A program made the position numbers and the translations under genes. A stretch of 34,759 nucleotides of DNA. It comes from Xylographa opegraphella (taxonomy: Eukaryota). Under the pieces are notes generated by a model. The model saw only the letters and a program-made list of their open reading frames with translations. It did not search any database and was not told where the DNA came from. Shown here one piece after another: positions 13,631-18,666 of this stretch; position 1 is the first letter of the stretch; each line of letters starts with the position of its first letter. Location: positions 62,001-96,759 of the forward strand of contig JALDZX010000069.1 of NCBI GenBank assembly GCA_022813865.1, given 5' to 3'.

Positions 13631-16346
13631 ATGGCGTTGGTCCATAACTGCCTGTCCGACACCATTCTCTTTCCGAGAGAGTCTTCGTACTTCGACATGT
13701 CCGACTCGAGGCAAATGGGAGGGTTCGATGGTTACGAATATGATATGAACACCGCCATGCCGCAAGACTTCCCCGACTTGATGCACTCTACCTACGACTC
13801 CTACACCGCCCACCCCGCCTATAGCTCCATCGAGCAAAACTACTACAACCTCACCCCTCAGTTCGTCCTCAACGGACCCAAGGACAGCACCATACAGGCC
13901 TCTCACCGCTTCGAACATTCCGAATCCCCTTCCACTTCCATGTCACGCGCTCTCGACCACGCCTCCTCTAACCTCTCCCATACCTCTGGGGCCTCGGGCC
14001 AAAGCAGTGCATCTTCCGTCGTCGGCTCGCCTTATTCTCAAGCGACGCACAGCTTGTCCGGTCAGGAGTTCTGGGTTCACCATTCCGGACTCGGTATTGG
14101 TCCGAGTATTGTGAACGAGCCCTCAATTGATCCCTTCAGTCTCTCCGGACCGGATTCGGAGCCGCTCTTGTTCGCCAGCGACAAGTTTCCCGGAAACTTT
14201 GTCGGTGAGTCGAGAAAGCTTTCTTCGTCTTTTATCTCTAGCAGTCCTGTTCTTGCTTCTCCGATTTCTTGTTCGTCTCTTACCTCTGGCTCGCTCGCGT
14301 CTTCTTTTCCTTCTCCAGCGCTGGCACTGGATACCTCTTTCGCTCCTCGGCAGATGACGATAGATACCATCCTTGAGGAAGTCAATGCAATGGGGAACTC
14401 AAGAAACACTGATTCTCCGACCGCTACAACGTCGCCAAGCACAGCATCACCCACTGCATTTCATCAAGCACATATTTCGAAACTTGCGCAGCCTAGGAAC
14501 ACACCGTTCAAGTCACCCACAACACCCGCTTCGGCAACGGCACTCTCCACATTTTCTCGGTCCCGCAATTCTGGATCCCGAAAACGGTCCATTGCCATGT
14601 CAGACCCTCGTGATGCTGTCACTGATCAGACGCCTCCCAAGCGGGCAACACCACCTCTATCTTCTCCTAGTCATATCTATGGGAGTCAATTCCAGACCCC
14701 ATTTTTCAGTCAGAGCAGTGGCAGATTTGTTGCTCCTCTTCAGTCCACCTGTTGGTTTTCCTTGCGTTACATTCTTCTTTTTCTTTTCCCCGAGTAATCT
14801 TAACTTGGATGCTTCTCTCTTCGTTCCGCATTCCTTTTTTCATAAAGCAATGGGCGAATTATGCTAACTTGAGCTGACAGATCCTGCTCTCATTCAACAT
14901 TACGATACACCGGTTGCATTAACCACACCTTCCGCGGCATACGCCGGCAATTTTAATCCTTTCCAGCCGCCCTCTCACGTTTTTCAACCCCCTTCTCCAG
15001 CCCCGTCAGACGTGTCAAGTCACGCTTCATATGCAAACGGATCAGCAAGAGCCCGCAGCACCAACGGATCACCGTATCTACATCAACATCATCCATACCC
15101 TCCGATGTCGCAAGGTCGGAGACCCTCCATTAGCTCCATGCATTCATACTACTCTCACGACAGTCCCCGGTCATCAGTCGGTCCAGATGGAGAAGGTAGC
15201 GAGCGTGGTCGCTGCCCTAATATAGAGTGTGGTCGTTTGTTCAAGGACCTCAAAGCTCACATGCTTACCCATCAATCCGAGCGACCAGAGAAGTGTCCGA
15301 TCGTGACATGCGACTATCATCAGAAAGGATTTGCTCGCAAGTACGACAAGAACCGCCACACCTTAACACACTACAAGGGAACGATGATTTGCGGATTCTG
15401 TCCCGGTCCCGGTTCTTCGGCCGAGAAGAGCTTCAACCGCGCTGATGTCTTTAAGCGTCATTTGACCTCCGTTCATGGGGTCGAGCAAAATCCACCTAAC
15501 AGCCGCAAGAAGAGCCCCGGCCTTTCTTCTGCCAGAAAATCAACGTCGGCGACACAGGATGCGGCCGGCAAGTGCTCGTCATGCTCTACAACGTTCAGCA
15601 ACGCGCAGGACTTATTTGATCATCTCGATCAGTGCATCTTGAACCAGCTGTCGCGAACCGACCCGACTGAAGTTATCAACGCGCAGATCTTGACCGGGAT
15701 CGCTAACGACCGAGCGGTCCAAGAGACGATGGAACGCAATCTACTTCCCTTGGGATTGGTCGATAGCCTCAAGAGTGAGCCAGTCGATGATGACGAGGAC
15801 GATGAGGACATGGCTGAGATTGAAGACCACAATGACTACACTTGGACTGGCACAGCCGCACCGGCATCTCGATCCGGCAAAGGTACGATCCGCGCCAACA
15901 AGCGGGACTCGAGTTGACAATCAGCACATCCCCGAGGTGTCCTTTCGCACGTTGGGGGTGGTAACTCTATCGCTAAACCTGGCCGGAACGGACCTGGTGG
16001 CAAGGCTTCAGGTCTTACTCGGTCCAAAGGGGGCGTTCCGGTCGTTGGCAAAGGGCGGAAGAAGCGCAAGTATTATCCCAACGCATGGGGATGTCCCATC
16101 GATAAGATGAAGATGAAAAAACGAGTTGTATGTGTCTACGATGGACAACGGCGACTATGGAAGGACGAAATGATGCTTGACAAGAATTTCGAAGTGCGCA
16201 TGCATTTGGAAGACGGCGACGACTACGTTACGGATCTGGATTACCAAACACTCCAAAGAACTGAAGCTCTACACAATGCCACAGAGGAGGAAAAAGGACC
16301 GTGGAGGGAGGATGACGACACGGATATCTCAAGACTGTTGTTCTAA
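13631..16346 (+). CDS. C2H2 zinc-finger transcription factor; exon 1 13631-14204 or 13631-14750 (alternative donors), exon 2 14881-15917 (TGA), with in-frame C-terminal extension 15918-16346 reachable by readthrough or a 42-nt intron (15883-15924)
   Basis: Fingers RCPNIECGRLFKDLKAHMLTH, KCPIVTCDYHQKGFARKYDKNRHTLTH, CGFCPG...FNRADVFKRHLTSVH, KCSSCSTTFSNAQDLFDHLDQC. S/P-rich N-terminus. Acceptor GCTAAC...GCTGACAG at 14880 is in frame with both donors. ORF 16107-16346 is in the same frame as the finger ORF. Confidence 0.9.
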
Positions 16347-16755
16347 GTGCCATGCAATCTGCCACGCTGTACTTGTATCCTTCTCTTTGCCCTGAAGCCT
16401 GTTCGCAGGCGAAAATCTGCACTATTTAGTGATCTTCACTTCACCGTTGGTTCTGATGCCAGAGTCGCATTTTACGATTGATGGCTTCATGATGGATATG
16501 GATGAGACCTATTGGATAATGAGCCGGATGCTGCATTGGTTGAGCTTAACTGTCAATCGATGTGGGTTCAGTAGCTGTTACTGTATTACATAGTGCTGGA
16601 CACACAAAACGTTGAGAAAAAGCTATTATTTTGCCTCTCCACTGGTATCCTCTATCTCCTGCCTCTTAAGGGCGCTGAGTCAAAAATCGCTTTTATTTTG
16701 GGTATATACTTGTTGATGAAATGCCCAATAATAGAGGCTATCGAGCCAGTCAGTT

Positions 16756-17010: not shown

Positions 17011-18666
17011 ATGATCCGACAGCCCACCGGTCGTATCGATCCAAAGCGCCAGAACACCATCAGCCATAAGAAAAAGCAGTTTGCCGATCCGACGTACAGA
17101 CAACAAGAATACCCGAATCGCTTGAGTTTCTACGATGTGCCTCCAACAGCAGAAATCACGCTCGAGCAGTTCGAGCAGTGGGCCATCGACAGACTGAGAA
17201 GTATTGCCTCCTATTCCCGGCTTCCGTGGAAGTTGACACGGCGCAGTCCTCGCCGAGCTGGAAGCCTGTTCTTTTCGGAACAAGACTCCCGCAGAGACCG
17301 CCGCACACATCACCCCTCTTCTCCAGAGATACCTCCCGCTATACTCAAACACCTCTTCCCCCTTAGGCCCTCAGGATGACAAGCTCAAGCTGGAGCGTCA
17401 GAAGGACCATTACTCCCACTTCATTCTTCGCCTGGCGTTCTCTTCCACCGAAGATCTACGGCGGCGCTTTACCCGGATCGAGAGCGCGCTGTTCAAGTTG
17501 CGCTTCCAGACTGACGATGCTCGGGAGCGGCAGGCGTTCATTGAGAGTCTGGATTTCAATTGGGAAGTCGTGCCGGAAGTTGAAAAGCGCGATTTAGGGC
17601 CTCATCTTCTGAACGCAACGCCAGGCCTCCGGCGGCAGGAGCTCGAGGACGGGGGCTGGTTTAAAGTGGACTGGGAGATGGTACCAGAGCTGGTGGAGAG
17701 CCGCAGGGTCTTCGTGAAGAACGGCAAGGCGTACGTGCCGGCACGGGAACAGATGAGCATGGTACTGGCAGAGTTCAGCGCTCGCCTCGACAAAGGACTC
17801 GAGGTATCTCCCCCCCTCCTCCCTTCCCTCTCCAACCACGGCCCCCAAGGTCGTCCGCAATCCCCATCCTAATCCCCTCCTAGCTTACATCACGCGCCCT
17901 TCCCCGCCTGGACGAGGACGACCGCCTGACACCCATCCTCACGCACTTATCCAAGAATTTCGCGACCCCAGATTCTACCCTGGCGGACGCGGACTCCGCT
18001 CTCCCGGGCGCGCCCATCACCGCTGCCTCCGTCGATGCTCTGGCGCAGCATTTCCCCCTATGCATGCGCAACCTGCACGCCACGCTCCGTGCCAACAGCC
18101 ATCTGAAGCACTTCGGCCGCCTGCAGTACACGCTCTTCCTCAAGGGCTTGGGCCTCTCCCTCGAGGACTGCTTGCTCTTCTGGCGCCGCGCCTTCCGCCT
18201 CATCACCGACGACACCTTCAACAAAGAGTACCGCTACAACGTGCGCCACGCGTACGGCGACGTGGGGGGCGACGCGCTGCGACGGGGCCGCGGATACGCG
18301 CCCTTTTCGTGCCAGAAGATCCTGACGGAGCATCCGCCGGGAAGTGGCGAGAGCCACGGGTGCCCGTACCGGCACTTCAGCGTCGACAACCTGAGCGCGC
18401 TGCTGCAGACGACGGGGGTGAACGATCGAGAGGTGCTGCGGGGCGTGAAGGAGGATGTGGAGAGGAAGAGGTATCATATCGCGTGCAACCGGGTGTTCGA
18501 GTGGGCGCACCGGGCGGACCTGAAGCGGGTGAAGGAGGATGGGAGCTGGGGCGCGGCGGATCTGGATGTCATCGTCCATCCGAACACGTACTTCAAGCGA
18601 AGCTATCTGCTGAGGAACGGGGCCGGAGCCGGCGGAGTGGGAAAGGAGGTGGAGATGGAGACGTAA
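17011..18666 (+). CDS. PRI2: DNA primase large subunit (p58), ~509 aa; exons 17011-17200, 17247-17803, 17884-18666
   Basis: LSFYDVPPTAEITLEQFEQWAIDRL, KDHYSHFILRLAF, and the Fe-S domain cysteines (HFPLCM, FSCQKI, HGCPY, IACNRVF) with HLKHFGRLQYTLFLKGLGL and HPNTYF. Introns are frame-consistent. Confidence 0.95.

Follow-up and report, generated by a model that had tools for sequence, protein, structure and literature searches.

A 34,759-nucleotide stretch of Xylographa opegraphella DNA (contig JALDZX010000069.1; hereafter the window) carries on its forward strand the gene of a C2H2 zinc-finger protein, a putative transcription factor, whose reading frame is interrupted by an in-frame TGA at 15915-15917. 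Comparison with related loci suggests, with a probability of about 0.7, that this TGA is a site of programmed UGA readthrough, which would yield a short form of 718 aa when the codon terminates and a long form of 861 aa when it is decoded. The earlier note on this DNA, made from the sequence alone, had preferred the same reading, namely a leaky UGA in a CARYYA context that hides a C-terminal domain, and the cross-lineage comparison lends it support at the level of sequence.

The gene most likely begins at ATG 13631, contains one intron (14751-14880) and then runs on to the TGA. Removal of this intron recreates the sequence ...PLQSTY-PALIQHY... found in the orthologue models P0001, P0002 and P0004. 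The open reading frame (ORF) that encodes the fingers spans 14868..15917 and closes at the TGA; CAA TCA follows immediately, and the frame then remains open for 142 codons up to TAA 16344-16346, exactly as had been described. Translation also reproduces the downstream peptide quoted at that time with its GRKKRK, and the extension reads QSAHPRG...KGRKKRK...EEKGPW. The features of the gene are as follows, with L and P numbers denoting related loci and proteins, respectively.

13631..14750, forward strand: exon 1 of the C2H2 gene, an ORF whose N-terminal part aligns with orthologue models; presumed start at ATG 13631.
14751..14880, forward strand: intron 1, 130 nt, phase 1, GTTGGT...ACAG; the frames of the two ORFs join as T and AT to give Tyr.
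14881..15914, forward strand: exon 2 up to the stop, from the ORF, a zf-C2H2 match and alignment to orthologues.
~15213-15635, forward strand: zinc-finger region in exon 2 (zf-C2H2, E 6.6e-06, above the cut-off).
15882-15914, forward strand: segment GTIRANKRDSS, the end of exon 2 before the TGA.
15915..15917, forward strand: in-frame TGA, where readthrough is proposed; also found in L001-L008.
15914..15933, forward strand: invariant context T-TGA-CAATCA-GCACATCCCC, matched as a regular expression in nine sequences and in 0/7 of L009-L015.
15918..16343, forward strand: 142-codon putative readthrough extension, from the open frame, homologues, selection on codons and invariant columns.
15927..15960 (loop 15941-15946), forward strand: predicted 13-bp stem-loop that begins 9 nt after the stop, from folding, shuffles and a pairing test.
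~16011 to the end of the extension, forward strand: conserved domain.
16050-16070, forward strand: KGRKKRK, resembling a nuclear localization signal (NLS).
16344..16346, forward strand: TAA, stop of the long isoform, from the sequence.

Of 689 candidates in a protein search with the 139 residues after the stop, 551 matched at E ≤ 0.001. A precomputed PF28332.1 assignment was present on 120/120 of the matches listed, which belong to Lecanoromycetes, Dothideomycetes, Eurotiomycetes and Leotiomycetes. The nearest matches are from Xylographa species (91-93% identity), which points to a Xylographa-like lichen-forming ascomycete. In the matching proteins the domain forms the C-terminus of C2H2-finger proteins, with fingers and C-terminal domain in one polypeptide. 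Judged from these homologies, the downstream frame is a real and widespread fungal protein domain, and the 551 fungal homologues bear out the hidden 142-codon C-terminal domain that had been proposed. Purifying selection acts on the extension in all stop-bearing lineages, with a non-synonymous divergence (pN) of 0.12-0.30 against a synonymous divergence (pS) of 0.68-0.86. Protein-level conservation begins directly after the stop, as invariant columns, and the first in-frame ATG downstream of the stop lies ~60 codons further on. A Pfam-A scan of the extension matched no family (the copy used did not hold the PF28332 model), and an ESM Atlas search with the extension gave no usable match. AlphaFold2 modelling of the extension from a 38-row alignment gave a mean predicted local distance difference test score of 50.5 and a predicted template modelling score of 0.23, too poor for a fold search.

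A single scan of metagenome contigs yielded 15 related loci (L001-L015). The finger part and the domain are in the same frame in all 12 loci that hold both, and an in-frame TGA stands at the homologous place in 8/15; like the number of homologues, this recurrence of the TGA with its context goes well beyond chance. These eight, L001-L008, represent four further lineages, Lecanoromycetes-like and Pleosporales-like: L001, L002 and L003, which are identical around the stop (one base differs further downstream); L004 alone; L005 and the closely similar L006; and L007 and L008, which are identical. With the window, the stop-bearing set comprises nine sequences from five lineages. In L009, L012, L013 and L015 the frame runs through the region uninterrupted and encodes ...RSGKGSLKTTK..., L014 has no stop in the examined stretch, and L010 and L011 are too short to tell. 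The nearest named proteins of L005 and L006 are from Trematosphaeria and Paraphaeosphaeria (88-89%), which makes these two loci Pleosporales-like; those of L007 are from Alectoria and Lecanora (83-86%), those of L004 from Psora and Alectoria (66-81%), and that of L001 from Pleopsidium (75%). From this placement it follows that the stop is common to at least two classes of Ascomycota. Moreover, four relatives called as ORFs (P0121, P0122, P0148 and P0185; 81-95% identity to the window) have ...KRDSS or ...KRDPS as their last residues, precisely at the stop position, and therefore carry the same stop. An in-frame stop between two ORFs of the same frame is thus conserved in five DNA lineages and four ORF-called relatives. 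A protein search restricted to the junction returned only 2 matches, and the junction read as W, compared with 1.84 billion representatives, returned 94, almost none of which span the junction.

The conservation extends to the bases around the stop. All nine stop-bearing sequences read T-TGA-CAAT[C/T]A[A/G]CACATCCCC. The hexanucleotide is CAAUCA in the window and CAAUUA in the Pleosporales-like loci; one or other is present in 9/9 sequences, and both fit CARYYA as well as CARNBA. A TGA-CARYYA conserved across orthologous DNA, which the earlier note had named as support for readthrough, is thus present as TGA-CAAT[CT]A in 9/9 stop-bearing sequences. Among the five lineages, 84% of the 25 columns made up of the TGA and the 22 nt after it are invariant; in the flanks the figures are 24% for the 45 nt before the stop and 26% for the next 50 nt. 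Invariant third codon positions number 1/15 in the 45 nt upstream, 9/16 from the TGA to +47 and 0/9 from +48 to +74, and synonymous divergence elsewhere in the gene is saturated between the lineages (pS 0.68-0.87). In the published work, which is cited here by PubMed Central number and from excerpts, CARYYA is described as stimulating UGA readthrough too, with about 15% readthrough in one mammalian context (PMC3542737, PMC4132726). The base before the TGA is always T (15914 in the window, and likewise in L001-L008), in codons AGT, CAT or TGT; this invariant T may be part of the signal.

A 13-bp stem-loop is predicted downstream of the stop in every stop-bearing lineage, with minimum free energies of -20.1 to -26.5 kcal/mol for 51-nt pieces (z -2.5 to -4.2) and 0 to 2 of 200 shuffles folding as well. 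The consensus energy is -24 kcal/mol, and the hairpin stays in longer sequence contexts. In the alignment, 98.7% of cells are paired, a share that falls to 61.5% or less on sliding the partner, and two of the pairs show compensatory changes (GC/AU/GU). The stop-less loci L012 and L015 showed no unusual folding around their SGKG motif (z -0.8 and -0.5), a region that is not strictly homologous to that of the hairpin. A search of 15700-16500 against Rfam found no family and no selenocysteine insertion sequence (SECIS), only two chance-level matches (E 0.43 and 0.45). Type II viral readthrough is described as using an extended stem-loop that starts ~8 nt 3' of the stop (PMC3542737, excerpt), and a 3' RNA structure at about this distance is predicted here in silico. 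The hairpin was absent from the earlier note and adds support to readthrough.

Relatives with a sense codon in place of the stop provide a further comparison. A total of 277 proteins were classified automatically at the stop position, and only colinear relatives were used, the noisy rows of distant, shorter orthologues being excluded. The residue at the stop position is G in P0017, P0040 and P0126, S in P0022 and P0034, T in P0130 and W in P0141; W, G and S are each one substitution away from TGA (TGG, GGA and TCA). In these colinear relatives the THP[RQ]GV motif is degraded: L007, with TGA, reads QSTHPQGVGG, whereas the 84%-identical P0017, with G, reads QLTQTQGAGA. Since the motif is apparently kept only where the stop is kept, it appears tied to the stop and not to the protein. 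P0005 (258 aa) has W at the stop position with the motif kept, and a second W four residues past the usual C-terminus (...LMSSRPW...). Owing to this extra W it was set aside as sense-codon evidence; its caller may have read TGA as W, which would make P0005 another stop bearer.

Several points weigh against readthrough. The independent DNA lineages number only five, and the covariation in the hairpin is modest (six sequences, 9/13 pairs that never vary, and a score reached by 21/500 shuffles). Both hairpin arms are coding (HP.., ..GGG), and part of their conservation could be protein constraint. The residues at the stop position of the relatives were called from predicted proteins, not DNA, which qualifies the comparison made with them. 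Finally, the window holds a usable donor (GTACGA, whose +5 base is G) together with two in-frame acceptors and a branch-like TTGAC, the elements of an intron that would remove the stop.

15883..15936, forward strand: candidate cryptic intron, in the window only, with donor GTACGA and acceptor CAG ending 15924 (42 nt) or GAG ending 15936 (54 nt).

A genuine short phase-1 intron, constitutive or alternative, at 15883-15924 or 15883-15936 in this Xylographa-like species, whose splicing would remove the stop and so give the long protein, is unlikely. The 42-nt interval had been put forward previously as a competing reading: it is present, its length is a multiple of three and the A of TTGAC (15917) lies 7 nt from the AG, but its GT/AG boundaries are not conserved; the in-frame GAG acceptor of the 54-nt version had gone unmentioned. 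An intron of 42 nt whose branch A lies 7 nt from the AG would be unusually short for such fungi, and GAG acceptors are rare. A scan of the loci covered in-frame, stop-free GT/GC..AG pairs whose removal would leave the conserved G-V-x-x-H-x-G-G-G block intact. A GT donor close to the stop and carrying G at +5 exists in the window only (GTACGA; its acceptors end at +7 or +19), while in L001 and L007 the candidates are weak or distant: GTTCCA in the former, and GC or a GT 192 nt upstream in the latter. No AG occurs within 21 nt past the TGA in L004, L005 or L006; the first ends at +26 in L004 and at +58 in L005 and L006, and none could spare the conserved block. Donor and acceptors are thus not conserved at homologous positions, whereas a conserved GT, branch and AG with variable length was what had been expected of an intron, and the branch and acceptor region coincides with a motif that is invariant in lineages without a usable donor or acceptor. 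At 15923-15936 the window reads CAATCAGCAC and the other four DNA lineages CAATCAACAC, an A-to-G difference that changes Thr to Ala and creates the CAG acceptor; among the five DNA lineages it is confined to the window, a point in favour of the intron. Several models from other taxa begin their next exon at AHPRGV or AHSRGV, and the window variant may recur. The interior of the supposed intron is also not free from coding constraint. The pre-stop segment measures 33 nt in four lineages and 27 nt in L005 and L006, always in frame, and encodes SGKG-x-[IL]-K..K, kept also in stop-less Chaetothyriales-like and other relatives. L005 and L006 differ at four sites in the 45 nt that precede the stop, all four of them third codon positions, with no effect on the peptide. 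IRANKRDSS is identical in four Xylographa-like sequences, amid neighbouring exon residues that vary. The coding-like conservation of GTIRANKRDSS that had been foreseen under readthrough is therefore seen, with frame and peptide similarity kept across lineages. Public gene models favour an intron on their face: the models of three Xylographa species, and of many more fungi from lichens and from the Pleosporales, span the stop by introns and lack the residues around it when aligned to the read-through window (such models include P0001-P0004, P0009, P0011, P0014, P0021, P0023, P0027, P0035, P0039, P0043, P0047, P0049, P0057, P0059, P0072, P0110 and others). However, the gaps differ in their positions relative to the stop, with three different boundary pairs in the three Xylographa models (-23..+2, -22..+7 and -11..+7) and -19..+4, -15..+10, -10..+19 and 0..+31 elsewhere. 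Such differing gaps have the look of predictors avoiding a stop, unlike a conserved intron, and the public models that bridge the stop are probably wrong at this site. Readthrough is favoured over an intron because the TGA and its context are conserved, the pre-stop segment is coding-like and the GT and AG are not conserved.

The stop might instead be corrected in the mRNA by stage-specific adenosine-to-inosine (A-to-I) editing of UGA to UGG (Trp), an option also raised previously. Such editing exists in filamentous ascomycetes, where premature stops are corrected in the sexual development of Fusarium and Neurospora and, as here, an in-frame stop inside conserved coding sequence must be overcome (PMC11156358); P0141, at least, has W at the stop position, and the conserved sequence and structure around the site might, in principle, serve as an editing signal. 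However, in the excerpts of that paper the fungal sites have U at -1 in >70% of cases and prefer A or G at +1 and +3, the targets are adenosines in hairpin loops, and stop correction is UAG to UGG, whereas the present site is a UGA codon with G at -1 and C at +1, its A lying 9 nt upstream of the stem and not in the loop. These features of fungal ADAT-type editing are therefore lacking here, and within the literature covered, itself available in part, no editing is reported for Lecanoromycetes or Dothideomycetes. The sequence context thus disfavours editing, which we regard as improbable. Lower still do we rate a true terminator whose downstream frame is expressed separately, by reinitiation, a non-AUG start or an internal transcript, or a TGA that encodes selenocysteine. 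The TGA is conserved, and a hairpin beside a UGA recalls selenocysteine-redefinition elements. Against separate expression, conservation starts right after the stop while the first in-frame ATG comes only ~60 codons later, the frame is shared in 12/12 loci with both parts, and relatives fuse the two parts in one frame. Against selenocysteine, colinear relatives show G, S, T or W at the position and not Cys, and neither SECIS nor any other Rfam family was found in 15700-16500; most fungi are described as lacking the selenocysteine trait (PMC10778597, excerpt).

Under readthrough, then, the mRNA of this Pezizomycotina C2H2 zinc-finger gene would bear a programmed leaky UGA. Most ribosomes would stop at UGA 15915-17 and release the 718-aa protein, which has the fingers without the C-terminal domain, while some would decode the UGA via a near-cognate tRNA and translate a further 142 codons in frame, as far as UAA 16344-46. 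The residues usually inserted at UGA are Trp, Arg or Cys. The resulting 861-aa form would gain the basic, NLS-like KGRKKRK and the conserved C-terminal domain, with the leakiness set by the CAAUCA right after the stop together with the 13-bp hairpin 9 nt downstream. Since relatives that lack the stop would produce the long form alone, the stop probably reduces or controls the full-length dose, or else creates a finger-only competitor.

We also lean towards the view that this recoding switch is ancient, common to Lecanoromycetes and Dothideomycetes and predating their split, with a composite signal, repeated loss and concealment by annotation. The UGA-CAAUYA, 13 more invariant bases and the 13-bp hairpin would together set the fraction of protein that gains the NLS-like motif and the domain. 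Repeated losses would have occurred by single-base conversion of the stop, the RNA signal then decaying, and invented introns would systematically hide the switch in public annotations.

The proposed site shares features with several known systems. The hexanucleotide CAAUCA or CAAUUA fits both the type I context (stop-CAR-YYA, as in tobacco mosaic virus) and the yeast CARNBA (PMC3542737, PMC4132726); the viral type I cases, however, are mostly UAG without a needed structure, whereas the fungal site is a UGA in a cellular gene, with 13 further invariant bases and a hairpin. The combination of UGA and a stable stem-loop, here predicted at 9 nt, is like that of type II viral readthrough in alphaviruses, tobraviruses and coltiviruses, and UAG-CAA-UUA with a compact stem-loop is listed for benyviruses (PMC3542737, Table 5). 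Type II sites differ in having CGG or CUA after the stop and in belonging to viral replicase or coat-protein genes, and the stimulatory role of the fungal hairpin is putative. Closer in host are the fungal genes in which readthrough exposes a type 1 peroxisomal targeting signal (PTS1), such as Ustilago PGK and others, since these are also cellular genes with a C-terminally extended isoform (PMC9549241). Those extensions, however, are short targeting tags behind a short UGA context in genes of another type, whereas here a putative transcription factor carries a conserved domain within 142 aa that is constitutive in relatives. Among yeast genes, PDE2 is reportedly subject to readthrough. The Drosophila POU factor Drifter and the human vitamin D receptor are likewise DNA-binding regulators whose C-terminus is altered by readthrough (PMC8417969, PMC5868278), although kingdom, family and signal are different and the extension is an add-on there, while in the fungal gene the long form looks ancestral.

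For viruses and animals, structure-assisted conserved readthrough is well documented; the fungal cases in the excerpts covered are short peroxisomal tags and some yeast genes. No fungal zinc-finger regulator with a conserved readthrough site was found in the literature searched, which leaves most subscription journals outside its coverage, and a prior description is possible. If the reading is correct, the gene would offer a natural, evolutionarily replicated system for the cooperation of hexanucleotide and hairpin on eukaryotic ribosomes, in which stop-bearing lineages adjoin close relatives with a sense codon and a decayed signal. The dosage of the full-length regulator would be set at termination, and predictors would mis-annotate such genes via ad hoc introns in dozens of published fungal genomes.

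Three minor observations concern a related locus, the name of the gene and its surroundings. In L004 (1809-2955) the finger match falls into two pieces, in frame 3 up to 2315 and in frame 1 from 2389, and there seems to be an extra intron or frameshift inside the zinc-finger region of this locus, which has no counterpart in the window. Orthology to SltA/ACE1 was considered from the source label 'Metallothionein expression activator' only and is an unconfirmed lead. The next ORF downstream of the gene, at 17240-17869 on the forward strand, matches the DNA primase large subunit (PF04104, E 3.3e-10) and looks like an ordinary housekeeping neighbour.

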